18,754 nt of DNA from a virus (UHGV-0135550), one strand, 5' to 3'. Positions 50-16,717 are shown, counted from the stretch's first letter. The notes: generated from the sequence alone by a model not told the origin. Translations and numbers: made by a program.

Positions 50-358
50 TTACGGTAATTTCATGAAGGCAAATACCGGACAGCCCGGATGACGAGCATC
101 TTCTGTTGCTTCCAGCATTGACTCACCAAACCACTCCGTCGTGGCGCGACCGTCAGCTGCTTTGTAGTGGATCAAGTACTGGTTTTCGCCATCCGCATAC
201 TGCGCACGGGCTTTAACCTCACCCCATTCATCACTGATGCGCATCTCCACCAGTTGAGACAACTCAAACTTAAACGGAGCAGCATCAGCACCAATTACAA
301 TCGGTTTGTTTTCTGTTTTTCCATCATCGTCTCCTGATATCGAAGCCCGTCGCCGCAC
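50..358 (-). CDS. Hypothetical phage protein downstream of the lysis cassette; start uncertain (GTG at 358 or ATG at 244)
   Basis: 102-codon ORF in the track; no motif I recognise and no convincing RBS at either candidate start. Confidence 0.35.
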   Translation of the reverse strand: MRRRASISGDDDGKTENKPIVIGADAAPFKFELSQLVEMRISDEWGEVKARAQYADGENQYLIHYKAADGRATTEWFGESMLEATEDARHPGCPVFAFMKLP

Positions 359-498
359 CGGGCACTGATCAACATTTGAGTATTCGCGGCGACAGAAAGA
401 ATTTATTTTATTGAATAGCCACTAACACAGAATTTCATGCTTTCCGGACGCTGGCGCGCCCTTCATTTTTCAGCAAAATATTCCGCTATTACAGATGA

Positions 499-681
499 TC
501 AGTTCTGCAGACACTGCCGAACGCCATCGATAAGCTGGCAGACCTGAGAAGCCGTATCGAAAAGCTGGCGCGCCTTATCCAGGCTGACGCATCCCACCAA
601 TAAAAAAGGCACCAGTATCGCTACCAGTGCCCATTTCGCCGCCGTTCGCGGCATTCTGTGTGTCCAGTGTTTTCTGCTCAT
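499..681 (-). CDS. Small lipoprotein (about 60 aa), possible Rz1/o-spanin-like lysis accessory protein
   Basis: From the ATG at 679-681 (RBS-like AGGTG 5-6 nt upstream): basic N-region, hydrophobic stretch WALVAILVPFLL, lipobox LVGC; sits directly after the endolysin stop. Confidence 0.45.
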   Translation of the reverse strand: MSRKHWTHRMPRTAAKWALVAILVPFLLVGCVSLDKARQLFDTASQVCQLIDGVRQCLQN

Positions 682-695
682 AACACACCTGGTTA

Positions 696-1076
696 TCAGC
701 GTTTCAACTGAAAGTGAGGCCCGTCTTTCAGTGTTTTCCAGTCCCCACCCCATTCGATGGCAGTTCCCAGCTCTGCGGCAGCCTGCTTAAATGCCTGCGC
801 GATTTTCTCGTACAGAGGCCAGTCCCATGACACTTGGCTGCCAATGTAGGCCACAACATCCACCGCATCACCTGTAAGGTGGCGGCTGTTCATGGTCTGG
901 CTTTTCCCTGCCGCTACCAGCTGTTTCTGGCGATACTTACTGCGCAGACCTTCCGTGATACCAAAATCAACCTCCGTCAGCTCCAGCGCACGGCGAACGA
1001 CAGCAACCAGCTGTGGTTTGACGCCCTCCAGATTTTTTTCACTGCGACGGCTGAATCTGAATTTACCCGGCATCAT
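696..1076 (-). CDS. Endolysin, peptidase M15 family (VanY / L-alanyl-D-glutamate peptidase-like)
   Basis: Zinc-binding pattern SRHLTGDAVD and C-terminal WGGDWKTLKDGPHFQ typical of M15 peptidases; ATG at 1074-1076 with GAGGTG RBS; GTG at 1082 overlapping the upstream stop (GTGA) is an alternative start. Confidence 0.75.
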   Translation of the reverse strand: MMPGKFRFSRRSEKNLEGVKPQLVAVVRRALELTEVDFGITEGLRSKYRQKQLVAAGKSQTMNSRHLTGDAVDVVAYIGSQVSWDWPLYEKIAQAFKQAAAELGTAIEWGGDWKTLKDGPHFQLKR

Positions 1077-1078
1077 AT

Positions 1079-1354
1079 TCACCTCAACAATGGAAAGATT
1101 TTTGTGACGTTCCCGCGTGCGCGTATCACCAGCACGCAGAACAGCAGGTTAAAAAACACTTCCAGCCAGCCCGTTGCTAACGGGCGACCACACAGATAGC
1201 TGAGGGGCGCAAAGGCATACAGCAGCATCAGCAGCCAGGCCAGCCATGACATCAGCGGTTTGTGTCTGGAGTCACGACGACGATAAAAAAAGAGCGTCAG
1301 CACGATAACCGTGCATAACGCCACATTCAGCAATCCGGGAAGGTTACTTAACAT
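1079..1354 (-). CDS. Membrane protein of the lysis cassette (holin/antiholin-like, 2-3 predicted TM helices)
   Basis: Start at ATG 1352-1354 with strong GGAGGAGG RBS; hydrophobic segments LLNVALCTVIVLTLFF, WLAWLLMLLYAFAPL, VFFNLLFCVLVI; lies between holin and endolysin. Confidence 0.5.
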   Translation of the reverse strand: MLSNLPGLLNVALCTVIVLTLFFYRRRDSRHKPLMSWLAWLLMLLYAFAPLSYLCGRPLATGWLEVFFNLLFCVLVIRARGNVTKIFPLLR

Positions 1355-1736
1355 TGCCGCCTCCTCCACCCCGCAGGCGGGAGAACACACCGGACACCAG
1401 TGATGCAATATCCTGCTGGTGGATGAACGACAGAATCTTCACCGACACCACCGATACCAGCACCGCACACAGCGCATCTGCCGATGTACCGTCATACCCT
1501 GTTTTTGATGCAATCCAGGCTGACAGCACGCGCGCCCCCAGCACGCCGACGATAAACGACACCAAAAAATGCGCCACCACGCGCCAGACTGAAATCTTCT
1601 GCGGCATCGTTGCCACAAATAACGCCCCGGCGAACGCACCAAACACAATCCCGAAATCCGTTCCGGTAAACAGCCCGAATACCGTCGCCCCGCCGAGCGC
1701 CGCAGCCGTGCCGGAACCGGATAAGGGTTCAGACAT
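1344..1736 (-). CDS. Putative holin (about 130 aa, three hydrophobic helices)
   Basis: Start MSEPLSG at 1734-1736 with AGGAGA RBS; Gly/Ala-rich TM segments; position immediately upstream of the endolysin module. Confidence 0.55.
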   Translation of the reverse strand: MSEPLSGSGTAAALGGATVFGLFTGTDFGIVFGAFAGALFVATMPQKISVWRVVAHFLVSFIVGVLGARVLSAWIASKTGYDGTSADALCAVLVSVVSVKILSFIHQQDIASLVSGVFSRLRGGGGGNVK

Positions 1737-1824
1737 ACTTTTTTCTCCTGTAAATAAAAAAGGGCCACCAGCGGCCCGTAAAAACACCCCGTCAAAGGCA
1801 CCCGCAGATGCCTTTTGTGTGGTG

Positions 1825-1977
1825 TTATTCAGATTTACGCAGTAAAGGCCGGAGCACGACCAGCGCCATCGCCACCAGCACACCATCTGCCAGCACCGAC
1901 ATCAGCCGTCCGGTGAAATCCACCGCCACTACCAGAAACAGCAGGATGGCAGCCAGCACAAGGCGCGCACTTTTCAC
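1825..1977 (-). CDS. Small hydrophobic protein (50 aa, GTG start), translationally coupled to the upstream TerB-like gene
   Basis: GTG at 1975-1977 overlaps the TerB-like stop TGA (1974-1976); product VKSARLVLAAILLFLVVAVDFTGRLMSVLADGVLVAMALVVLRPLLRKSE has two hydrophobic stretches; below the 60-aa cutoff of the ORF track. Confidence 0.3.
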   Translation of the reverse strand: MKSARLVLAAILLFLVVAVDFTGRLMSVLADGVLVAMALVVLRPLLRKSE

Positions 1978-2399
1978 AGGTACTGCTCCAGCGGTAGCTG
2001 AAGCGCCTGCGCAATTTTCTTGAGCTGTGTTTCTTCATCCGGACCAATGCCATCCTGGTCAGCGATATCCAGACACAGGCACAGCACATTAACTGCGTCA
2101 TCAGTACCTGCCACGTCAGCCAGCTGACGAAGGGCTTCAGCATTGGCAGAGCGCGGCGACGCTTCATAACGGGCGCGGATATTTGCACTCATTTGTGCAA
2201 TCTCACCGGAGAACGGCGCAAAGGCAGGAAGTGCTGCAATGGTTTTCTCCAGTACCGCGACTTCTTTCGCGTCACAGGTGTCGTCAGCATATGCAATGGA
2301 ATACGCGCCCCAGACGGTCGCCTCCACTGCGTCGCGGTTCTCCATCTTCTTCACTTCGGTAATGGCCTTGCGGGTTTTCTTTTTGAAAATACCAAACAT
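1974..2399 (-). CDS. TerB-like (tellurite-resistance TerB domain) protein
   Basis: 141 aa; C-terminal pattern DIADQDGIGPDEETQLKKIAQALQLP resembles the TerB signature (DGxxDxxExxxLxxIAxxLxL); AGGA RBS 9 nt upstream of the ATG at 2397-2399. Confidence 0.55.
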   Translation of the reverse strand: MFGIFKKKTRKAITEVKKMENRDAVEATVWGAYSIAYADDTCDAKEVAVLEKTIAALPAFAPFSGEIAQMSANIRARYEASPRSANAEALRQLADVAGTDDAVNVLCLCLDIADQDGIGPDEETQLKKIAQALQLPLEQYL

Positions 2400-2569
2400 C
2401 GTGACTTTTCCTTTTAGTGGGTGAGCCTGCGCCCGGGGGTGACCAGCCCACAGAGAAAGTCACACTGACCATCCCGTAAGCTCACCCCTGAAAGGCTCTG
2501 TGGTTTTTGATGTGCGCCGGGCGTGGCGCGGATATAAAAAAGGCCCGCCGTAGCGAGTCATGAAAAAAT

Positions 2570-2600
2570 GAATAAAAAAAACCGCCCGGTAGAGGCGGTT
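2570..2600 (-). terminator. Rho-independent terminator (minus strand) between the tRNA cluster and the TerB-like gene
   Basis: Perfect 7-bp stem AACCGCC / GGCGGTT (2580-2586 / 2594-2600), 7-nt loop; minus-strand reading is followed by a run of 9 T then ATTCATTTTTT. Confidence 0.6.
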
Positions 2601-2867
2601 AAGGATGTATTTCCAGGTTTTGCTTAATATATGATTAATCTCAATGTCATGGTGTTATTTACAACACCAGAATGATGCATCACCGACCCTCCCAGGAAAT
2701 ATAAAATCTCCACCGAAAATGCACCATTCTGCTGCCGTAAAAAAATCAGCACTGCGGCTACACCCGACCTCAAATCATAGCCAGAGAACAGAATGTTTTT
2801 TAACAATCTACCCCCACGTAATAAAAAAATACGTCAGTGCCGTTACTATAAGGCGTATTTCAAATGT

Positions 2868-2942
<75 letters not shown>

Positions 2943-2945
2943 ATA

Positions 2946-3021
<76 letters not shown>

Positions 3022-3023
3022 AA

Positions 3024-3100
3024 TGGACCGTCACCGGAGACTCGAACCCCGCGCCATCAACTTCGAAGGCTGATGCTCTATCCGGATGAGCTAGTGACGG
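3024..3100 (-). tRNA. tRNA-Arg (anticodon UCG)
   Basis: Minus strand CCGTCACTAGCTCATCCGGATAGAGCATCAGCCTTCGAAGTTGATGGCGCGGGGTTCGAGTCTCCGGTGACGGTCCA: 7-bp acceptor stem (C1-G72), D-loop with GG, anticodon loop CTTCGAA, T-loop TTCGAGT, encoded CCA. Confidence 0.7.
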
Positions 3101-3224
3101 TTTTATTGCCACATCCGTAACGACAGCCAGCGGGAATAATATGCATTCAGAATCAGCCGCCTTAGCTAATTGTGCAACCATCTGCTCTTTGCAAGTGCAC
3201 TTAACGTCCTGCGCCACTTTTCAG

Positions 3225-3253
3225 GCATAAAAAACCCGCTCATCGGCGGGTTT
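3225..3253 (-). terminator. Rho-independent terminator (minus strand) at the left boundary of the AT-rich island
   Basis: Stem AAACCCGC / GCGGGTTT (3232-3239 / 3246-3253), loop TCATCG; on the minus strand the stem is followed by TTTTATGCC extending the U-tract. Confidence 0.5.
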
Positions 3254-3298
3254 AAGCTGTGTGGCGTAGTAACCACTCTTAACACGATACAATACTTT

Positions 3299-3327
3299 TT
3301 GCGTACGCGTTAAGATTTTTTTATAAT
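3299..3327 (+). promoter_or_regulatory. Sigma70-like promoter for the large island ORF
   Basis: -35 TTGCGT (3299-3304), 17-bp spacer, perfect -10 TATAAT (3322-3327), about 70 nt upstream of the ATG at 3397. Confidence 0.4.
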
Positions 3328-3396
3328 TACTTACCTTTCTCACACCAAATGTAAAAGCAATATTTTTTGATAATCCTGTTGTTTAAAGGGAATAGC

Positions 3397-6300
3397 ATGA
3401 AATCAATTGTACACTTATCCGACTTACACTTATCAGACTCAAAAAAATATGGTTTTCACTGGAAGAAAGCCAAAGAACTGGTCACAGTATTAGTTAATGA
3501 TATACATTCATTAAGTAAAGAAAACAACCTCCAGATAGATGCCATTTTTTTTACTGGGGATTTAACGTTTTCTGGAACCAAAGAGCAATTTCAACTATTT
3601 GATGAACATTTCCTCTCTCCACTTATTCAAAAGCTGAACATCAGTAAAAAAAACATTTTTATAACCCCAGGCAATCATGATGTGGACAGAAGTAAAGTTC
3701 ATCCACTTGAAAAACAACTGCGAACTGGTTCGGACGAAAATTTCATATCATCATACTTTGATATGATAAATAATGGAAAGTATTCATGGGAACGTCTCTA
3801 CGAGTACTGTGAATATAATAAAACAATATTAGATCATCATTCTGATGTTGAACAATCTGGACGCATGATTACATGCTTTAAAGTAACAAACAAATTATAC
3901 GTCGTTAGCGTAAATAGCGCATGGTTAGCTATGGATGATAATGATATTGGTAACTTACGAATTACCCAAAAGCAAATTGATTTTATCAATCGTGCCAAAA
4001 TACCTTCTGATGCAAAAATAATATTATTATGCCATCATCCTTTAGATTGGTTGAATAAGAATGATCGTGACATTTTTTCAACATTTATTGAAAAAAAAGT
4101 TTCAATGTTCTTTTTTGGTCATATGCATGATTTTAAACAAAAACTAGAATCTAGTTTTTGTGAAAACATCACCCTCTTTTTGCAAGCAGGAACTTTGGAT
4201 ACTAGTGAAAATGTATCAGGCTATTCATTAATAAATTTTAATAGTTCAAATGTCATATCAGACGGAAGAATTTTTTATAGAAAATATAATAAAGAAAAAA
4301 CATGCTATGAACCATGGGAAGAAAGAGGAAATGGTGGTGTTTTTGATTTCACCACTGAGAAAACTCTAACTTTTGACTCTGAAAAATTTGCAACATTATC
4401 TAATGAGATTCTAGAGAAAACTGATAAGGATTTATTAATTAACATTGGAATCTCTGATGAAAAGAAAAAAAGTCTAAGAACTCTATTTACTGAACCAAAT
4501 TTCCTTGAATTTGCTCTTGGAGCCATGCCTTCTATGGAGATTAAGTCCACACAAGAATTACTAGAAGGACGAAACAACCTTGTGATTGTAGGAAACCATA
4601 GCTCAGGTAAAACATCTCTTTTAAAATACCTATTCATTAAGAGTCTAGAAAAACAAGCCAGCAAAGACTTCAGTAACTTTGCATTTTTCTTAGATTTAAA
4701 TGCAATTGAATTAAATAGCTTAAATACAATTGTAAGCGCATTATGTACACAATATTTCAATGCAGATTCGACCACATCTTTTGAAGAAAAAATTAAAAAA
4801 ATGTTACATGAGGGAAGATGTGTTATATATATTGATAATCTGGACAATATAAATACAAAAGAACAATGTGTAATTTCTGATTTTTTTATAAAATTCAAAG
4901 AATGTAGATTTATCGTAACTGCTGGCTATAATAATTCAGATCTGGTAGTTAAAATATTATCAGATGAAAGTAAAGCTAAATTTCATGCAATTGCTATAGG
5001 TTCATTACGCAGATCTAATGTTCGCGATATTGTATCAAGATGGCACGACACAACATCACAAAATATAATATATAAAGAAATCACGCGAACAATCAACAAT
5101 TCGCAACTTCCTCATAATTATTTTACATACTCAATGCTTTTAGCTATTTATGAAGTTGATCATGACGTTAAAGGAATATTAAGTGAGTCTGATATTATAG
5201 AAAACTTCATAGAAATTTTGCTTCGTAAACATTTTATGGATACTCCGCCTAATAAGCCACAATTTAAAGAACTTCGACATTTTCTTGGATATTTAGGATT
5301 TACATTATTCAAAAACAAATGTAATTTTATTTCAAATAATGAACTTCTGCAGACTGCAATAATTTTCAATAGAGATACCATGCATGATTATCAAGTAGAA
5401 GACTATATAAAACCATTAAAAGAATGTGGAATATTGAAAGAAGAGCTATGTAATGTGATTTTCTCGCAGCCTTGCTTTTTATACTATTCCATCGCTTATT
5501 TCATGAAGCATAACGAAGAGCTAAAGAAAGAAATTTTATCCGATAATAATTACCTACATCTACATAAAGTTATTGAATACTATTCATCGCAGAACTCATC
5601 TAGTCTTGATTTATTATACTTACTTAAAAAGAAGACTAATGCAATCAAATCTTCTTTATCTGAACGAATGCTCGAAGATAAGGGAATAAATATTGAAGAT
5701 ATAAAGATTGAAGACTCTAATACTTTCTCTATTTTAGATATGGTATCAACCCAAGATGATTTCGAAAAAAAGATAGAATCACTCCGTGCAGATAGAGAAA
5801 AAGATGACGCGCGACTAGATGAATTATCACCTTTATCTGATAAAGATAAAAAAGCTAATATATCAAATGTTAGAGCTGAAGGTAATAATAATCTGTTACA
5901 TGATCTTATTAACACTTTATCTCTTTATGCAAGGGTATTCCGTAGTACTGAATTATCTATGGAAAGAGAAAATATATTAAATATATTTAATGACCTTGTA
6001 AAGGGTTATGTTTTTTACATGAAAGCGTCACTAGTACTAATGGATGATTCATTTGTTCTTCCAGTAATACTCCCTGCATTAGAAAAGAAAATGCAAGAGG
6101 ATAAATTAACCGATAACGAAAGGCAACGAGTTTTTGAAATGTTTAAACTAGTATTGTCTTTAGTTCGCTCAATGATCCCAAATAACATACAGTTTATTAT
6201 GAGCAATGACTTAAGCTCGAAAAAACCACGTATTGCAAACATTATTACTGAATCAAAAGACTCAAATAGCAATCCTGTAGAAAAGGCTATTTTAACTTTC

Positions 6301-6549
6301 ACCTTAATGGATATTAAAGATGAAATGGTTATACAATTAGCTAACGATTTAGCAAAGATACAAAACAAAGTTGTTCAAGAATCTCTTTTCTTCAAGATTA
6401 ATCAAATTATAACAAGTAACTATGATTTAAAAAGAACTGAAGAAGAAGCATTGAAAGAGTTAGCAAAAAACATTGGCATTAAAAGAAAATTAATTCTCAC
6501 ACCCAAGATTAGTGATGCCTTTAATACGTTAAACCGCATAGGACATTAA
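3397..6549 (+). CDS. Large multidomain protein: N-terminal calcineurin-like metallophosphoesterase, central NACHT/STAND-like P-loop NTPase, C-terminal helical domain; candidate antiphage defense protein
   Basis: Metallophosphoesterase motifs DxH (D9-L-H11), GD (54-55), GNHD (92-95), HH (213-214), GHMH (241-244); Walker A GNHSSGKT (399-406); Walker B-like VIYIDNLD (about 476-483) followed by FIVTAG; ATG at 3397 with AAAGGGA RBS (TTG at 3367 is the ORF-track start). Confidence 0.8.
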   Translation: MKSIVHLSDLHLSDSKKYGFHWKKAKELVTVLVNDIHSLSKENNLQIDAIFFTGDLTFSGTKEQFQLFDEHFLSPLIQKLNISKKNIFITPGNHDVDRSKVHPLEKQLRTGSDENFISSYFDMINNGKYSWERLYEYCEYNKTILDHHSDVEQSGRMITCFKVTNKLYVVSVNSAWLAMDDNDIGNLRITQKQIDFINRAKIPSDAKIILLCHHPLDWLNKNDRDIFSTFIEKKVSMFFFGHMHDFKQKLESSFCENITLFLQAGTLDTSENVSGYSLINFNSSNVISDGRIFYRKYNKEKTCYEPWEERGNGGVFDFTTEKTLTFDSEKFATLSNEILEKTDKDLLINIGISDEKKKSLRTLFTEPNFLEFALGAMPSMEIKSTQELLEGRNNLVIVGNHSSGKTSLLKYLFIKSLEKQASKDFSNFAFFLDLNAIELNSLNTIVSALCTQYFNADSTTSFEEKIKKMLHEGRCVIYIDNLDNINTKEQCVISDFFIKFKECRFIVTAGYNNSDLVVKILSDESKAKFHAIAIGSLRRSNVRDIVSRWHDTTSQNIIYKEITRTINNSQLPHNYFTYSMLLAIYEVDHDVKGILSESDIIENFIEILLRKHFMDTPPNKPQFKELRHFLGYLGFTLFKNKCNFISNNELLQTAIIFNRDTMHDYQVEDYIKPLKECGILKEELCNVIFSQPCFLYYSIAYFMKHNEELKKEILSDNNYLHLHKVIEYYSSQNSSSLDLLYLLKKKTNAIKSSLSERMLEDKGINIEDIKIEDSNTFSILDMVSTQDDFEKKIESLRADREKDDARLDELSPLSDKDKKANISNVRAEGNNNLLHDLINTLSLYARVFRSTELSMERENILNIFNDLVKGYVFYMKASLVLMDDSFVLPVILPALEKKMQEDKLTDNERQRVFEMFKLVLSLVRSMIPNNIQFIMSNDLSSKKPRIANIITESKDSNSNPVEKAILTFTLMDIKDEMVIQLANDLAKIQNKVVQESLFFKINQIITSNYDLKRTEEEALKELAKNIGIKRKLILTPKISDAFNTLNRIGH

Positions 6550-6575
6550 AATGCCACTTTTTTGATATAATTAAA

Positions 6576-6603
6576 AACCACCCGTAACAGGGTGGTTCTC
6601 TAC
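6576..6603. terminator. Hairpin terminator between the convergent large ORF and small ORF (strong on minus strand, possible on plus)
   Basis: Perfect 8-bp stem AACCACCC / GGGTGGTT (6576-6583 / 6590-6597), loop GTAACA; minus-strand reading is followed by TTTTTAATTAT; sits 27 nt after the large ORF stop. Confidence 0.6.
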
Positions 6604-6652
6604 CTCTGCTGCAATATATCTCAAATAATTAAAACGAGCAGGAATTTACCTA

Positions 6653-6832
6653 TCAAAAAACTTGACTACCGGAATTCGAATTTAAAACCCCATTAGTATT
6701 TTTAGGTTTTGTCATTTTCAAATTAGCTTTCATACTACATGCCATAAAATATTGGGTAAGAAAAATGGTATTTAAATGATTCCAAGAAGTAGTTTTATCA
6801 TAAAAATAATTAATTCTTTGTTTCTTATTCAT
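6653..6832 (-). CDS. Small AT-rich ORF (59 aa) of unknown function, convergent with the large island gene
   Basis: ATG at 6830-6832 preceded by a strong RBS (AAGGAG, 6-nt spacing); no motif I recognise; followed by the 6576-6597 terminator. Confidence 0.35.
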   Translation of the reverse strand: MNKKQRINYFYDKTTSWNHLNTIFLTQYFMACSMKANLKMTKPKNTNGVLNSNSGSQVF

Positions 6833-6907
6833 GCACACTCCTTAGTAAAATATAGAAATAAAAGACAAATCACTTATAAATGTCATGTTAAAAAAATTCT
6901 CATCATG

Positions 6908-6936
6908 ATTATTGATGAGTGATTTTATATTATCAA
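6908..6936 (-). promoter_or_regulatory. Candidate sigma70 promoter downstream of Q (possible late promoter PR'-like, or promoter of the small ORF)
   Basis: On the minus strand: -35 TTGATA (6931-6936), 17-bp spacer, -10 AATAAT (6908-6913); AT-rich context so chance matches are likely. Confidence 0.3.
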
Positions 6937-7063
6937 AAAATTATATTATTAACAACTCTTGTTTATTACTCAACCAATACCAAAATCATTAGCCACGCAT
7001 ATATATTTTCAAACATATAAAAACAACACACAATATAAAATCCAGCCACAAAAACTCGCACTT

Positions 7064-7408
7064 CTATTTTATGAAATAAAAACACCCTTCAATAAAACCT
7101 AAAGCAGTTTGCAATTCCTTTCTAATCGTACCGTCCGAACATTTTCGCCTCTTCGCAATAGTTCTAAGCGAAATACCAATAACAAAATGAGCTATAATTA
7201 GCTCATATTCCTCTGGTTTATACTTACACAGGCGGGCAACACAGCCGTCTATCATGATGCCTTCATCATCATCACACTGAAGGCGTATTTTTTTACCATG
7301 AGGTAAAAGCCCCTTAAAGCCTGCTGCTATCGGCTGCCAGTCCACACCACTGTTATCTGCTGCAGCCCATGCTCCCCAGCGGTCCAAAACTTCATACATA
7401 TCACGCAT
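7064..7408 (-). CDS. Late-gene antitermination protein Q (small Q family, non-lambda type)
   Basis: N-terminal LDRWGAWAA motif and Cys-rich core (QCDDDEGIMIDGC ... KCSDG) as I recall for phage antiterminator Q family; ATG at 7406-7408 with GGAGAAA RBS (TTG at 7423 is the ORF-track start). Confidence 0.75.
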   Translation of the reverse strand: MRDMYEVLDRWGAWAAADNSGVDWQPIAAGFKGLLPHGKKIRLQCDDDEGIMIDGCVARLCKYKPEEYELIIAHFVIGISLRTIAKRRKCSDGTIRKELQTALGFIEGCFYFIK

Positions 7409-7425
7409 CAACTTTCTCCACAAAA

Positions 7426-8421
7426 TCAGGCCAGCACACCAATTGCCAGTGCACGATCGATAAAACGAAATATCAGCTCCAGCTGGGAGCCATACTTCTC
7501 TTCAAATGCCACGGTATCCGCATGCAGCTCGTCGTGATGCTTTCTGCACAAAGGCAACACAAAGAGGTCATGCGCTTTTGTACCCATTCCCCCCTGACCG
7601 TGGCCTATCAGGTGGTGGGGATCATCAGCAAGCTTTCCACAACATGCACACGGCTGTGTCTTAACCCAGCGCGTGTACTTTTCATTAACCCAACGGCGAC
7701 GTTTGGGGCGTAACATAAAAGACTCCGGCGACTCCGGATCCACTTCCAGCGACAGCACCTTTTTCGCTTTATCCTGGATGATGCTGGTGGCAGGAACCGA
7801 AGGAACAAGGTCACTTTCCCGGGTGACAGACGGCACAATAGGCTTCGGTAATCTCAGTGCCTTACGGGCTGCACTTTCCGGTAAGGCATCCGCCAGGTCA
7901 TTACGAACCAGCCACCAGCACAGTTCCGGCATTGTCACAACGTGACTATCATCAAAACCGAGATCACGGCGCACAACAGACAACACCCAGCGGGCACAGT
8001 TATCCGTTGCCATTGATTCCAGCCGTTCCGTGAACTGATCGCGCAGCTGGTTATCACAGTGCCAGCACAGACGGATTGCGCCCGGAGCGTGTCGCATTGT
8101 GGTCATGTTCTCGCTGTGCCAGTCGGAATGAGGCCACTGACAGCCCTTTTCACGAAGTAACCAGCTTTCAAGACATTCCACGCCACCAGCACGACGGATC
8201 ACTGCCTCATTGCGGAACACGGCCCGAACGGCAGGATCATCCGCCAGCGGTTGTGATGCCGCGGGAACGGCACCACTGGCGAAAGATGAATAACGTTCCG
8301 GCTCAGGCTCCAGCAGTACACGCCCCTGCATAAACAGGGGCATCAGCTCTGAACCTGGTCTGAACAATACGATCCCCATACGCGGGGCAATTTCAGGGGT
8401 CAGTAGTGCTCTCACGGTCAC
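7426..8421 (-). CDS. DUF968-like phage protein with C-terminal Cys/His-rich (HNH-like) motif; start uncertain
   Basis: C-terminal CACCGKLADDPHHLIGHGQGG ... LCRKHHDELH; nin-region position; GTG start overlapping the KilA-N stop, no clean RBS. Confidence 0.55.
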   Translation of the reverse strand: MTVRALLTPEIAPRMGIVLFRPGSELMPLFMQGRVLLEPEPERYSSFASGAVPAASQPLADDPAVRAVFRNEAVIRRAGGVECLESWLLREKGCQWPHSDWHSENMTTMRHAPGAIRLCWHCDNQLRDQFTERLESMATDNCARWVLSVVRRDLGFDDSHVVTMPELCWWLVRNDLADALPESAARKALRLPKPIVPSVTRESDLVPSVPATSIIQDKAKKVLSLEVDPESPESFMLRPKRRRWVNEKYTRWVKTQPCACCGKLADDPHHLIGHGQGGMGTKAHDLFVLPLCRKHHDELHADTVAFEEKYGSQLELIFRFIDRALAIGVLA

Positions 8422-8422
8422 C

Positions 8423-9232
8423 TCAATGAACGGTATCGAGCAGCTTTAACAGCTCAGGGAATCGGGATTCGAAGAAATGCGGCTGCGTCTCGCGCGGATT
8501 TGCGGGACTGGTGATGTTCTTGCCGAACATGCAGCCTTTCGCTGTCAGCGACCAGAATTTTTTGATGTTGTTAATCGCGGTACGGCTGTATCGTTCGCGT
8601 TGTTCAACGATCCCCAGCTTCACCATCTGGTGATATGCCTGATTAGCCGTCAGGCGGATACCATACTGCTTCAGCAGTGCACTCAGTGACAGCGTAGGAC
8701 GGCTTGAGCCATCGAGTGCATCAGCAGGAGCATCAATGGCATAGCGCGGTGCCAGATTCGGTAAGCCAACAGCCTCCTGAAGTTTCTGACAGGCTCCAAG
8801 CACTGATGAGTTAGACAGGTTTAATTCCCGGCGCATAAAGTCCAGCAGAATCACACCAGCCTGCATCTTGTCAGCAGCCTGCCCGGATAATTTTTCCGGT
8901 GCGCTGGTTACCATATCGAAAGTACGGATCACCTTCAGATGGAATGACGGGCTGATCCACATTGCATAGGCATACACCAGTTCCTTGCAGACATACGTTC
9001 CCCGTTCATTTCCCCCATGAATCACACTCACCGGGTCAACACCCAAATTCTGGGTGTTGGTCAATTCATGAACAAGTTCAACAGTTTGTTGGCTGGAAAG
9101 AAACTTTCCCGGCTCCTTGGTTCTGGCATTTGCACCAGATGCTACTGCTGCGCGATGCAGATCGTTCAGGCTGTAACGCCCATAAGCATCACGACGAACT
9201 TCAATACCATCAATGACCATCAGATTATTCAT
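8423..9232 (-). CDS. KilA-N domain protein
   Basis: N-terminal MVIDGIEVRRDAYGRYSLNDLHRAA resembles the KilA-N DNA-binding domain; ATG at 9230-9232 with AGGAGA RBS. Confidence 0.65.
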   Translation of the reverse strand: MNNLMVIDGIEVRRDAYGRYSLNDLHRAAVASGANARTKEPGKFLSSQQTVELVHELTNTQNLGVDPVSVIHGGNERGTYVCKELVYAYAMWISPSFHLKVIRTFDMVTSAPEKLSGQAADKMQAGVILLDFMRRELNLSNSSVLGACQKLQEAVGLPNLAPRYAIDAPADALDGSSRPTLSLSALLKQYGIRLTANQAYHQMVKLGIVEQRERYSRTAINNIKKFWSLTAKGCMFGKNITSPANPRETQPHFFESRFPELLKLLDTVH

Positions 9233-9251
9233 ACTTCGTTTCTCCTCTTAA

Positions 9252-9641
9252 TCAGGCGGCTGCACCCGCCGGTTTCTCATACTTACTGATAGTGATCTCG
9301 ACCTTCCCTTTCGGGATAACCGGTCCCCACTCCACCAGCATTCTTTTCACCTGTCTGTCGTCTTCCCACACACCCGCGTGGGTCAGGGCGTCAAACAGAG
9401 CCTTGTTATAGTTGTCCAGATCGCGGATCCGGTTATCCGGAGGAAACAACACGATCTCCACTGAAGCAGGTGCCGACGTTGGTTTCGGCAGACGACGTAA
9501 CTGCTCAACTATTGCTGCGCACGCCGCGCTCTGAAATTTTCGCCCCGCCTCGCTTATCAGGCTCTTACCAGCAAATGCCCCTTTGTTGGGGTGTCGCCAG
9601 TACGTGTTCACGCTGGGCGGAAAAGGCAGGATCAGCTTCAT
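9252..9641 (-). CDS. rusA: Holliday-junction resolvase RusA
   Basis: 129 aa with PPSVNTYW, RDLDNYNKALFDALTHAGVWEDDRQV matching the RusA family pattern; ATGA overlap with the upstream stop. Confidence 0.85.
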   Translation of the reverse strand: MKLILPFPPSVNTYWRHPNKGAFAGKSLISEAGRKFQSAACAAIVEQLRRLPKPTSAPASVEIVLFPPDNRIRDLDNYNKALFDALTHAGVWEDDRQVKRMLVEWGPVIPKGKVEITISKYEKPAGAAA

Positions 9642-9964
9642 ACTTTCAGGCCCCTCTCATGTAACCAGTGGGCTGCACGCAGCCTGGCGTTTTCCTCACC
9701 GGCAAGCAGTGAGCGGATAATCCCGACCGCCTCGCTGTCGTCGTCCTTCACCACGGTATGAAGCGTGATCCCCCGGGCCACACCACGCTTTATCGTGATG
9801 ACGCCTTTTTTCTCCAGTGCGCGAAGATGCTCCACCGCTGCATTCACTGAACGGTATCCCAGCATGGTTGCCACCTCCTGATTGGTTGGCGGGAAGCCAC
9901 GTTCTTTCTGATAAGAAATCAGCATATCCAGCACCTGCTGCTGGCATTGAGTTAACGTCATCAT
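9638..9964 (-). CDS. LexA-like N-terminal DNA-binding domain protein lacking the S24 peptidase domain
   Basis: 108 aa; QQQVLDMLISYQKERGFPPTNQEVATMLGYRSVNAAVEHLRALEKKGVI parallels the LexA winged-helix domain; no Ser/Lys peptidase region follows. Confidence 0.6.
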   Translation of the reverse strand: MMTLTQCQQQVLDMLISYQKERGFPPTNQEVATMLGYRSVNAAVEHLRALEKKGVITIKRGVARGITLHTVVKDDDSEAVGIIRSLLAGEENARLRAAHWLHERGLKV

Positions 9965-10614
9965 GCCGCCATCTCCCTGACCAGTTTTTCCGCCTGCTGG
10001 CGAACCTGCACCAGAAAGGCTTCACCACATGCCTCAAGTTCATCGCGCCCGATGTAGCTGATTGCCGGTCCCTTCCAGGTCTTGTCGAAAACAGCAATAG
10101 CACCAGCGAAGAAAGCGCCTGTCGGCACCTGCTTCTCATCCTTCGGGATAAACCAGGCAGGCAGTTCAAAACCAATACGCCCGCGAATAAAAGCAATATG
10201 GTCCGCATCTTCCGGCCACCACACTTCGCTGGTGGCAGCTTTGATCAGGAAAACATAGCGCCCACCCTTATCACGCATGGCACTGGCATGTTTCATGATG
10301 TAACGCATGCCGGTGATGTATTGCCCCTCATGCTGACTGGCGCGGCTGTATGGGGGATTGCCAAAGGCAGCACCTTTAAGCTCCGCAAGACGTTCTGACC
10401 AGTCATGCGCCAGCGCGTTGTCTTCCGCCGTGTAATACGCGGCACATTTGGCGTTATCACCGTCAGTGAACAGATCCAGAACAAACGGACCAAACAAGGT
10501 GTTAATTCCCCAGAAAATGTTGTCCGGCGTGCGCCACTGATCGCCCACTTCCTTCAGTTCATGGGCTGGTTTGTTCCGCAGTTCTACCAGCGCCTGGCAA
10601 TATTTATTACTCAT
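9961..10614 (-). CDS. Phage Dam-like DNA N6-adenine methyltransferase
   Basis: NPPY catalytic motif (FGNPPYSRAS); ATG at 10612-10614 (ORF-track start at 10659 is an upstream extension). Confidence 0.75.
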   Translation of the reverse strand: MSNKYCQALVELRNKPAHELKEVGDQWRTPDNIFWGINTLFGPFVLDLFTDGDNAKCAAYYTAEDNALAHDWSERLAELKGAAFGNPPYSRASQHEGQYITGMRYIMKHASAMRDKGGRYVFLIKAATSEVWWPEDADHIAFIRGRIGFELPAWFIPKDEKQVPTGAFFAGAIAVFDKTWKGPAISYIGRDELEACGEAFLVQVRQQAEKLVREMAA

Positions 10615-10706
10615 TAAGCCCCCACGTAAAAAGCATCCGCAATGTCTCCGGAAGTACACCCCGGATGGGCTTCAATGAATTTCTGAACTTCATTCAAAAG
10701 ACTCAT
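10614..10706 (-). CDS. Possible 30-aa micro-ORF translationally coupled to the methyltransferase
   Basis: ATG at 10704-10706, two nt after the upstream gene stop, GGGGGTGA just 5' of it; stop TAA overlaps the methyltransferase ATG (TAATG). Product MSLLNEVQKFIEAHPGCTSGDIADAFYVGA. Confidence 0.25.
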   Translation of the reverse strand: MSLLNEVQKFIEAHPGCTSGDIADAFYVGA

Positions 10707-16087: not shown

Positions 16088-16180
16088 ATGGAAACGTAAT
16101 TGACTCAATAATCGCCGGATGGTGAGGGCTTCCTTTTACCAGAATTCAGCGCGGTGCAGCGCATATACGTGGAGAACAAA

Positions 16181-16717
16181 ATGTCATTTATTAAAACTTT
16201 TTCCGGGAAGCATTTTTATTATGACAGGATAAATAAAGACGACATCGTTATTAACGATATCGCGGTTTCTCTTTCAAATATCTGTCGCTTTGCAGGACAT
16301 CTTTCACATTTCTACAGCGTCGCCCAACATGCGGTGCTTTGCAGCCAACTGGTACCGCAGGAATTTGCTTTTGAAGCGTTAATGCATGATGCAACAGAAG
16401 CGTATTGCCAGGACATCCCGGCGCCACTGAAACGCCTTCTTCCTGACTATAAACGGATGGAAGAAAAAATAGACGCCGTAATCCGTGAGAAATACGGGTT
16501 ACCCCCGGTTATGAGTACCCCCGTGAAATATGCCGATCTCATCATGCTGGCAACCGAACGCCGCGATCTCGGGCTTGATGATGGCTCTTTCTGGCCTGTG
16601 CTGGAAGGTATCCCGGCAACAGAGATGTTCAACGTGATTCCACTGGCTCCAGGCCATGCCTACGGGATGTTTATGGAACGCTTTAACGAATTATCGGAGT
16701 TACGCAAATGCGCATGA
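16181..16717 (+). CDS. yfdR: HD-domain phosphohydrolase, YfdR-like (5'-deoxynucleotidase family)
   Basis: HD motif in EALMHDATEAY with upstream His residues; 178 aa from ATG 16181 (GGAG RBS); ORF-track start at 16154 is an extension. Confidence 0.75.
   Translation: MSFIKTFSGKHFYYDRINKDDIVINDIAVSLSNICRFAGHLSHFYSVAQHAVLCSQLVPQEFAFEALMHDATEAYCQDIPAPLKRLLPDYKRMEEKIDAVIREKYGLPPVMSTPVKYADLIMLATERRDLGLDDGSFWPVLEGIPATEMFNVIPLAPGHAYGMFMERFNELSELRKCA

Follow-up and report, generated by a model that had tools for sequence, protein, structure and literature searches.

DS-8 (WP_032203427.1; 1014 amino acids, from E. coli ECOR) is a single-protein antiphage system with metallophosphatase and NACHT domains that was found by DefensePredictor and defends alone in E. 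coli MG1655 (Science 2026, PMC13092281). Protection reached 5.6 logs against Bas1, 4.1 logs against Bas19, and 3.7 logs against Candy and extended to many phages (Table S7, PMC13092281), and each of the substitutions D52A, N84A, and K375A abolished defense. Calcineurin-like phosphoesterases have also been described as effectors of related STAND systems (Kaur et al. 2021) and, in bacterial NACHT proteins, have been listed as N-terminal effectors (Kibby et al. 2022; Cell 2023). In the portion of the text examined, none of the experimentally tested bNACHTs carried an effector of this type. A further relative, PDC-S60, is a computational candidate entry in PADLOC without a published mechanism, and the name was not mentioned in the literature searched. 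Here these systems are compared with a gene at positions 3397 to 6549, plus strand, of the virus sequence UHGV-0135550, an 18,754-nucleotide stretch referred to in full as the window. Judged by its homology, this gene is a divergent, prophage-borne member of the known DS-8/PDC-S60 family, no surprise in kind, and it probably encodes a single-protein, NLR-like antiphage sensor-effector.

The Calcineurin-CE effector family was reportedly defined by Nicastro et al. (NAR 2023). Two recent reports concern the chemistry of such domains. The MisA protein of Metis (DS-9A) is an NAD+ diphosphatase (bioRxiv 10.1101/2025.11.05.686725), and in PUA-Cal-HAD the Calcineurin-CE domain turns deoxynucleoside diphosphates (dNDPs) into monophosphates (dNMPs) and also cleaves NAD+ (bioRxiv 10.64898/2026.01.15.699771).

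A metallophosphoesterase-NACHT protein and its family

The gene is a single unbroken open reading frame (ORF) of 1050 codons that begins with an ATG at 3397, just 3' of a AAAGGGAA ribosome-binding site, and ends with a stop codon at 6549. Mononucleotide shuffling of the same bases (500 replicates) gave longest stop-free runs of 70 codons on average and 162 at most. The DNA is 100% identical to LJN53_RS05680 of E. coli EC71 (WP_114443772.1). The RefSeq name of that protein is simply "metallophosphoesterase," and a more informative one would be "DS-8-like / PDC-S60 family antiphage NACHT protein." The protein and its regions are as follows, with domain limits given in nucleotides of the window.

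3397 to 6549, plus strand: gene for the metallophosphoesterase-NACHT protein, 1050 amino acids plus stop (ORF, Pfam, PADLOC, NCBIfam)
3397 to 4146, plus strand: calcineurin-like metallophosphoesterase catalytic domain, residues 1 to 250, the predicted effector
4168 to 4356, plus strand: beta-rich extension, residues 258 to 320 (strands 260 to 263, 274 to 283, 286 to 298, 303 to 306, and 315 to 319)
4549 to 5001, plus strand: NACHT nucleotide-binding domain, residues 385 to 535 (Walker A 399 to 406, Walker B 476 to 483)
5002 to 5511, plus strand: helical and winged-helix domains of the NACHT module, residues 536 to 705 (predicted secondary structure, nSTAND_NTPase4)
5512 to 6546, plus strand: C-terminal all-alpha domain of 345 residues, residues 706 to 1050, the presumed sensor

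The family assignment is carried by two profile matches that run nearly the length of the protein. In PADLOC (PADLOC-DB v2.0.0, 2023, matches listed at E up to 1), the PDC-S60 model PDLC05051 matched with an E value of 2e-97 and 325.5 bits, aligning residues 4 to 1029 of 1050 with model positions 3 to 1001 of 1027, a single-gene match over most of the protein and 97% of the model. NCBIfam model NF053861 ("DS8_antiphage") aligned in one stretch, residues 6 to 992 against positions 1 to 962 of 994 (E 4.4e-50), so that the metallophosphatase, NACHT, and C-terminal regions are colinear over the full length. Its score of 170.4 bits falls below the equivalog cutoff of 790 bits, and the window protein is therefore not a DS-8 equivalog.

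Direct comparisons used two stand-ins for DS-8: its first 399 residues (Table S8, PMC13092281) and a Citrobacter amalonaticus ortholog that was rebuilt across a frameshift in an A-run and scores 935.6 bits on NF053861, above the cutoff. The 399-residue segment is 23% identical to the window protein (E 5e-15); a database search with it yielded fragments and proteins no longer than 688 amino acids. Alignment of the family profile with the Citrobacter ortholog by hhalign gave a probability of 100% (E 2.9e-39, 942 columns, 18% identity) and covered all three regions, while BLASTP against the ortholog detected only residues 5 to 462 of the window protein. The three residues required for DS-8 defense, D52, N84, and K375, align with D55, N93, and K405. 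Two of the mutant sites put forward in an earlier sequence-only reading of this DNA (D9/H11, N93/H94, and K405) thus coincide with positions already known to matter in DS-8, N93 with N84A and K405 with K375A, and the set was well chosen; D55 corresponds to the D52A site. The same reading had proposed a role in phage defense, and that proposal is backed by homology along the whole length to a protein whose antiphage activity was validated by experiment. Profile searches placed the protein in a known defense family, not in a housekeeping or nondefense one. What could not be upheld was the view that no described system has this arrangement, since PDC-S60, DS-8/NF053861, and the list of Kibby et al. 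already cover it.

The unrepaired Citrobacter amalonaticus gene (CP011132; locus L002, 6001 to 9053) is frameshifted in an A-run near codon 620. Its identity with DS-8 is 81% across the initial 399 amino acids, and it has resolvase and integrase genes nearby.

DS-8 and the window protein share a single chain of about 1000 amino acids and the order metallophosphatase, NACHT, C-terminal helical region, and differ in genomic setting, the Citrobacter ortholog lying near resolvase/integrase genes and the window protein in the slot between antiterminator Q and the lysis genes of a prophage. They also differ in model preference. The Citrobacter ortholog has PDLC05050 as its best PDC-S60 model, whereas the window protein and every homolog tested from Enterobacterales, Burkholderia, Lysinibacillus, and Bacteroidota match PDLC05051. 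On PDLC05051, the window clade scores 245 to 325 bits and core members (e.g., P0069 and P0112) about 1130 to 1195 bits, which makes the window clade a peripheral branch of PDC-S60. Because of the ortholog's preference and this gap in scores, DS-8, the PDC-S60 core, and the window clade are best taken, on homology, as three branches of one family. P0069 and other homologs from the first list were considered as DS-8 equivalogs and rejected, with NF053861 scores of 120 to 220 bits.

The window clade is a separate one that spans the Enterobacterales, often in prophage cargo slots opposite phage operons, and its homologs in other genera are 42 to 64% identical to the window protein. With residues 336 to 1050 as the query, the matches among 1.84 billion numbered 423 cluster representatives with E values of 1e-3 or lower, of which 31 reached 1e-30 or lower. 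Most of the 423 are 1030 to 1080 amino acids long with a match that starts near residue 330 to 410, which fits the same N-terminal phosphoesterase domain. One relative (P0269) has a weak Mrr-like nuclease N terminus on a related NACHT and C-terminal part, and several relatives of about 700 amino acids begin at the NTPase and have no effector domain, the exchangeable-effector pattern expected of STAND immune proteins.

Domain searches and structure prediction agreed on the architecture. Pfam Metallophos (PF00149) matched residues 3 to 245 (E 1.3e-11, 45.8 bits against a cutoff of 21.5), NACHT matched residues 395 to 551 (28.5 bits against a gathering cutoff of 26.7), and nSTAND_NTPase4 matched residues 644 to 697 just under its cutoff (25.8 bits against 27). 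The five motifs of the calcineurin-like set, which the sequence-only reading had called complete, were all located: SDLH at residues 8 to 11 (D9, H11), TGDL at 53 to 56 (G54, D55), GNHD at 92 to 95, CHHP at 212 to 215 (H213, H214), and GHMH at 241 to 244 (G241, H242, H244). The NTPase motifs it had named were found as well, with Walker A GNHSSGKT at 399 to 406 (K405) and the Walker B-like VIYIDNLD at 476 to 483. Across an alignment of 41 sequences reaching down to 19% identity, D9, H11, G54, D55, G92, N93, H94, H213, H214, G241, H242, H244, G404, and D480 are invariant. A further motif, FIVTAG, is present at residues 505 to 510, where strand four of the NTPase is predicted. The block is not conserved among family members, and its earlier designation as sensor-1 is therefore positional only.

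An alignment-based AlphaFold2 model (predicted local distance difference test [pLDDT] score, 84.9; predicted template modeling [pTM] score, 0.63) contained an alpha/beta phosphoesterase sandwich at residues 1 to 250 with the five metal-ligand motifs of PF00149, a beta-rich extension at 258 to 320, a P-loop domain followed by helical and winged-helix domains at 385 to 705, and an all-alpha region at 706 to 1050. The extension lies inside the match to a second PADLOC model, PDLC00736 (residues 5 to 333). The Walker A and B motifs and the NLR-style order of nucleotide-binding, helical, and winged-helix domains place the central module among the NACHT/STAND NTPases, and it resembles NLRC4, NOD2, and NLRP3 both by fold and by profile. 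The NLRC4 profile match, which extends to profile position 665 and covers the helical and winged-helix region, required the family profile; a single-sequence search of the PDB returned nothing useful. Pfam, the model, and the fold and profile matches are therefore in accord with the three parts first read from the DNA, and structure prediction, which had been suggested as a check, recovered all three, the NTPase fold included.

A shorter form of the E. coli protein is common in databases. Its representative (P0001; 784 amino acids, a 376-sequence cluster), named "NACHT domain-containing NTPase," is an ORF call from an internal TTG (L267) and does not include the phosphoesterase domain. Given such calls, some assemblies may carry copies in which the phosphoesterase part is disrupted or split off. 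On the opposite strand of the gene, an ORF at 4305 to 4898 (197 amino acids, within a 206-codon stop-free run) exceeds all 500 shuffles. It was rejected as a real gene and is probably a by-product of codon usage, because the longest antisense stop-free runs share one frame and the run is not kept in the Rahnella homolog.

Effector chemistry and a proposed mechanism

Metis MisA/DS-9A shares with the window protein a homologous phosphoesterase domain that serves, or in the window protein is predicted to serve, as antiphage effector under a fused sensor/switch module. Metis has an N-terminal PUA-like sensor of N6-methyl-deoxyadenosine monophosphate (m6dAMP) and usually a HAD partner and forms hexamers and filaments, whereas the window protein has, as its regulator, a NACHT NTPase joined to a C-terminal helical domain. 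With no PUA domain in the protein and no HAD gene nearby, membership in Metis was rejected. With bNACHTs and animal NLRs, the window protein shares the order effector, NACHT, C-terminal sensor and an NLRC4/NOD2/NLRP3-like series of nucleotide-binding domain, helical domain 1, and winged-helix domain; it differs in a C-terminal domain that is not of the LRR, TPR, WD40, or HEAT type, and none of the four models returned by PADLOC at E up to 1 was a bNACHT model. The Avs/AVAST proteins likewise work as single chains in which a STAND NTPase separates an N-terminal effector from a C-terminal sensor, and mobile elements can encode them, but the window NTPase is of the NACHT/nSTAND4 type and the C-terminal domain of the window protein is not TPR-like. 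Assignment to Avs was rejected: PADLOC returned no Avs model at E up to 1, and the C terminus gave only generic helical-bundle matches. Assignment as a CBASS effector, for which PDLC00736 is the model, was also rejected, as only the phosphoesterase part matches (positions 6 to 320 of 561) and no cyclase gene was found in the neighborhood; CBASS effectors sit beside a CD-NTase and have a nucleotide-sensing domain such as SAVED.

The phosphoesterase domain scored 72.5 bits on the NCBIfam model DS9_1, the MisA type (E 3.1e-20, residues 2 to 216 against model positions 194 to 399); the CpdA and SbcD models gave 19 and 16 bits. This DS9_1 score was used as a proxy for the relation to the Calcineurin-CE family. 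The Citrobacter DS-8 ortholog reached only 38.9 bits on the same model. BLASTP against DS-9A gave 29% identity over 140 amino acids (E 7e-8). The closest structures to the domain were phosphodiesterases and pyrophosphatases, not nucleases: Lmo2642 (19.8 in the list of structural neighbors), acid sphingomyelinase (19.7), SMPDL3B (19.5), the zebrafish dimetal phosphatase 2nxf (19.1), Rv0805 (18.7), and GpdQ (18.7), followed by purple acid phosphatase (18.2), SbcD (16.0), and Mre11 (about 13 to 14). By its sequence and fold relatives, the effector is likely most similar to nucleotide phosphodiesterases and pyrophosphatases, including the Metis domain, and cleavage of a nucleotide pyrophosphate is favored because the MisA-type match, the Metis biochemistry, and the nearest structures all point that way.

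Apart from the isolated domain, the top Foldseek match of the whole model was PDB 9a6c_B, Bacillus subtilis YydB in the YydD-YydB model (E 2e-13, 380 columns). YydB, a Bacillus metallophosphoesterase modeled there as a complex with YydD, may be a two-gene relative with the same type of effector.

Two alternatives keep the NLR-like protein and change its output. An Mre11/SbcD-type nuclease that degrades phage or host DNA would account for the same domain order, and both proteins do appear among the structural neighbors; they stand at the low end of that list, the SbcD profile score is far below that of DS9_1, and neither a closest relationship to Mre11/SbcD nor a Rad50/SbcC partner was found, which makes a nuclease output unlikely. 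The other alternative is an effector that breaks down cyclic (oligo)nucleotides or a different signaling nucleotide; in its favor, the DS-8 authors suggested cyclic-nucleotide degradation for their protein, by analogy with SMPDL3A (PMC13092281). This, too, is improbable. DS-8 works alone in MG1655, with no cyclase or other signal-producing gene in that construct or at the locus in the window, the loss of a signal would not by itself harm a phage, and NAD+ and dNDPs are the substrates of the only biochemically characterized defense enzymes from the related domain family.

The weakest alternative, that the gene is not a defense gene at all and is a phage accessory enzyme for the prophage's own cycle or an inactive remnant, could draw on its very AT-rich composition and its position antisense to the late operon, which might mean poor expression (with silencing by H-NS inferred), on the common database form that starts at L267 without the phosphoesterase domain, and on the frameshift in the Citrobacter amalonaticus ortholog. 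It is nonetheless very unlikely. The reading frame is uninterrupted, and of the 18 E. coli genomes with the gene, 16 match over 80% or more of its length, all with an identity of at least 99%. Conservation of all catalytic and Walker residues extends through a family reaching other phyla, a full-length homolog, DS-8, is experimentally confirmed for defense, and related prophages with the same Q gene lack the gene and bear other cargo, so that it is dispensable for the phage cycle.

For an antiphage sensor-effector that drains a nucleotide pool, the following sequence of events is proposed. In the lysogen, the gene would be transcribed from its own candidate promoter (3299 to 3327), opposite the late operon. 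Upon infection by another phage, the C-terminal all-alpha domain would detect a phage- or infection-derived cue, as in the NLR, Avs, and bNACHT paradigm. The NACHT module would then bind ATP and oligomerize, with a need for K405 suggested by DS-8 K375A, and the oligomer would switch on the N-terminal di-metal phosphoesterase, with a need for D55 and N93 suggested by D52A and N84A. The effector would hydrolyze a small nucleotide and not DNA, most likely at the pyrophosphate or phosphodiester bond of NAD+ or of a (deoxy)nucleoside di- or triphosphate [(d)NDP/(d)NTP]; similarity to Metis MisA (DS-9A), the structural neighbors, and the broad phage range of DS-8 are the grounds for this step. As an essential pool is drained, phage replication would stop and the infected cell would arrest growth, and the benefit to lysogen and prophage would be superinfection immunity.

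Several observations weigh against this proposal. DS-8 is the sole validated member of the family, so that function in the window clade is assigned by homology; identity to DS-8 is only 18 to 23%, and the NF053861 equivalog cutoff is missed widely (170 versus 790 bits). The likeness to MisA/DS-9A is at the level of the domain only, with neither a PUA domain nor a HAD partner gene, and the DS-8 authors' own suggestion is the degradation of cyclic nucleotides. Matches to the C-terminal domain were only of a generic helical-bundle kind, with no recognizable ligand-binding fold. Within the clade, this domain is no more divergent than the catalytic domain (42 to 44% versus 46.5% identity), so there is no accelerated C-terminal divergence of the kind reported for bNACHT01. 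Expression in the lysogen would depend on a candidate promoter read by eye. Searches of 50,697 deposited phage genomes by megablast and tblastn found no match to the gene.

The window clade is a second, very divergent branch of the family (about 20% identity) that has kept the catalytic and Walker residues and occupies cargo slots in several enterobacterial genera. This makes it useful for working out the substrate and trigger of the metallophosphatase-NACHT proteins and how general their defense function is. It could discriminate NAD+/dNDP cleavage, as in Metis, from the cyclic-nucleotide degradation proposed for DS-8, and it could reveal which phages a lambdoid prophage excludes.

Prophage position and distribution

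The host element is an E. coli lambdoid prophage whose nearest complete genome is EC71 (82% coverage, 99.5% identity). The gene lies between a 59-codon ORF and a tRNA cluster, on the plus strand and opposite to the Q, tRNA, and lysis genes, and its GC content of 30.0% (23% at third codon positions) bears out the earlier remark that it is AT-rich relative to its surroundings (left flank, 52.4%; right flank, 48.9%). Flanking features are listed from right to left, in the direction of late transcription.

7064 to 7408, minus strand: antiterminator Q gene (Pfam Phage_antitermQ, E 1.3e-44)
6908 to 6936, minus strand: candidate late promoter pR' (TTGATA, 17-nucleotide spacer, AATAAT; 10 of 12 consensus positions)
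6653 to 6832, minus strand: AT-rich 59-codon ORF (WP_039268256.1; no Pfam match)
6576 to 6597, minus strand: terminator-like hairpin with U-run, candidate tR' type (-17.2 kcal/mol, z -3.8)
3299 to 3327, plus strand: candidate sigma-70 promoter of the gene (TTGCGT, 17-nucleotide spacer, TATAAT; read by eye)
3232 to 3253, minus strand: GC-rich hairpin with U-run (-13.5 kcal/mol, z -2.75; stem AAACCCGC/GCGGGUUU, then UUUAUG)
2868 to 3100, minus strand: cluster of tRNA-Gly(tcc), tRNA-Thr(tgt), and tRNA-Arg(tcg) genes (ARAGORN), between the cargo gene and the lysis genes
1974 to 2399, minus strand: TerB-family gene, directly before the holin pair in the late operon
1825 to 1977, minus strand: DUF3927 gene, likewise directly before the holin pair
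1344 to 1736 and 1079 to 1354, minus strand: holin genes
696 to 1073, minus strand: M15 endolysin gene

Location of the gene as cargo between Q and the lysis genes, noted from the sequence alone, was confirmed and recurs in other prophages. It was found in 18 of 5426 complete E. coli genomes, always at 99% identity or more, with the match spanning at least 80% of the gene in 16 of them. The left hairpin, the gene, the 59-codon ORF, and Q occur together as one block in at least three prophage backbones.

EC71: backbone with tRNAs and M15 endolysin
Strain 90-9281: backbone with lambda-type holin and GH24 lysozyme, integrated beside tRNA-Thr and proA
Res13 pig isolates: degraded prophage with a DNA methyltransferase and essD/rrrD

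In IMG/VR, only three contigs, all of prophage type, carried the gene, and the protein was 100% identical in each. More distant homologs had comparable settings in two genera. The Rahnella aquatilis homolog (64% identity) lies between Q and the holins, on the strand opposite to the phage genes, and that of Cronobacter turicensis (46%) lies between replication gene P and the RusA/Q region, again on the opposite strand. The Pectobacterium homolog (42%) is chromosomal and adjoins a PhD/PIN toxin-antitoxin pair.

Related prophages that share the rest of the window were compared at the same slot (loci L003, 3908 to 6991, and L004, 3773 to 7977; NCCP 15734 and SA186). The SA186 prophage has a Q-family gene that aligns from window position 7079 onward, beyond which come hypothetical genes together with ISApl1 and a DNA methyltransferase, and the NCCP 15734 prophage has a different Q and a slot with a DNA methyltransferase and small hypothetical genes. 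Since other cargo occupies the same slot in related prophages, the region between Q and the lysis genes is a general cargo hotspot. The window is a clear case of this slot, known for stx genes, bearing an immune gene. In SA186, the two hypothetical genes are on the plus strand and are broken by ISApl1, with the methyltransferase in addition.

Two late-strand hairpins with U-runs (6597 to 6576 and 3253 to 3232) bracket the gene. The right one lies just past its 3' end, and none of 200 shuffles folded as well; by analogy with lambda pR'/tR', it is a candidate terminator of the late promoter. The left one marks the edge of the cotravelling segment, as matches to other gene-bearing E. coli prophages start at 3206 to 3231. 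The site at 6908 to 6936 was the top-scoring one in a consensus promoter scan, and it is weak evidence because the total number of sites in the scan was not above shuffle expectation. The plus-strand site at 3299 to 3327 has a perfect -10 hexamer and was missed by the scan because its -35 hexamer has only 3 of 6 matches. Neither this promoter nor the two flanking hairpins were listed by the consensus promoter and terminator scan; the hairpins were confirmed by folding. The ORF at 6653 to 6832 always travels with Q and the cargo gene in E. coli and is annotated in three prophage contexts, and it may be the noncoding leader of the late transcript rather than a gene.

With the candidate pR' near 6936 to 6908 and the hairpins at 6597 to 6576 and 3253 to 3232, a Q-dependent late transcript would have to read through both hairpins and run antisense over the whole gene before it arrived at the tRNAs and lysis genes. 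Together with the proposed effector chemistry, this arrangement suggests a further, more speculative reading that is rather doubtful as a whole, in which the protein would be the first NACHT-type NLR sensor with a nucleotide-pyrophosphate-cleaving output and its antisense placement would be functional. The output could be cleavage of NAD+ to nicotinamide mononucleotide (NMN) and AMP, or depletion of (d)NDP/(d)NTP, by a Calcineurin-CE-type domain. As for placement, Q-dependent read-through at induction may run 3.3 kb antisense and shut the gene off. If both held, the prophage's own lytic cycle would escape the defense, which would stay available to the lysogen against other phages, and the NLR paradigm would be linked to the newly found Metis chemistry.

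In Stx phages, tRNA genes lie upstream of stx, and the cluster at 2868 to 3100 recalls them. Strain 90-9281 carries the cargo gene without tRNAs of this type. Elsewhere in the window, RefSeq annotation of near-identical prophages places an N6-adenine methyltransferase at 9961 to 10659 (minus strand) and a YfdR-type 5'-deoxynucleotidase at 16154 to 16717 (plus strand); no link between these two nucleotide-related accessory genes and the cargo gene was found. Beyond the integrase in EC71 (locus L001, 28043 to 29994), just outside the window and adjoining the attachment side of the prophage, an AAA-family ATPase gene is paired with an RloB-family gene, and this pair may be another defense-type module beside the prophage.

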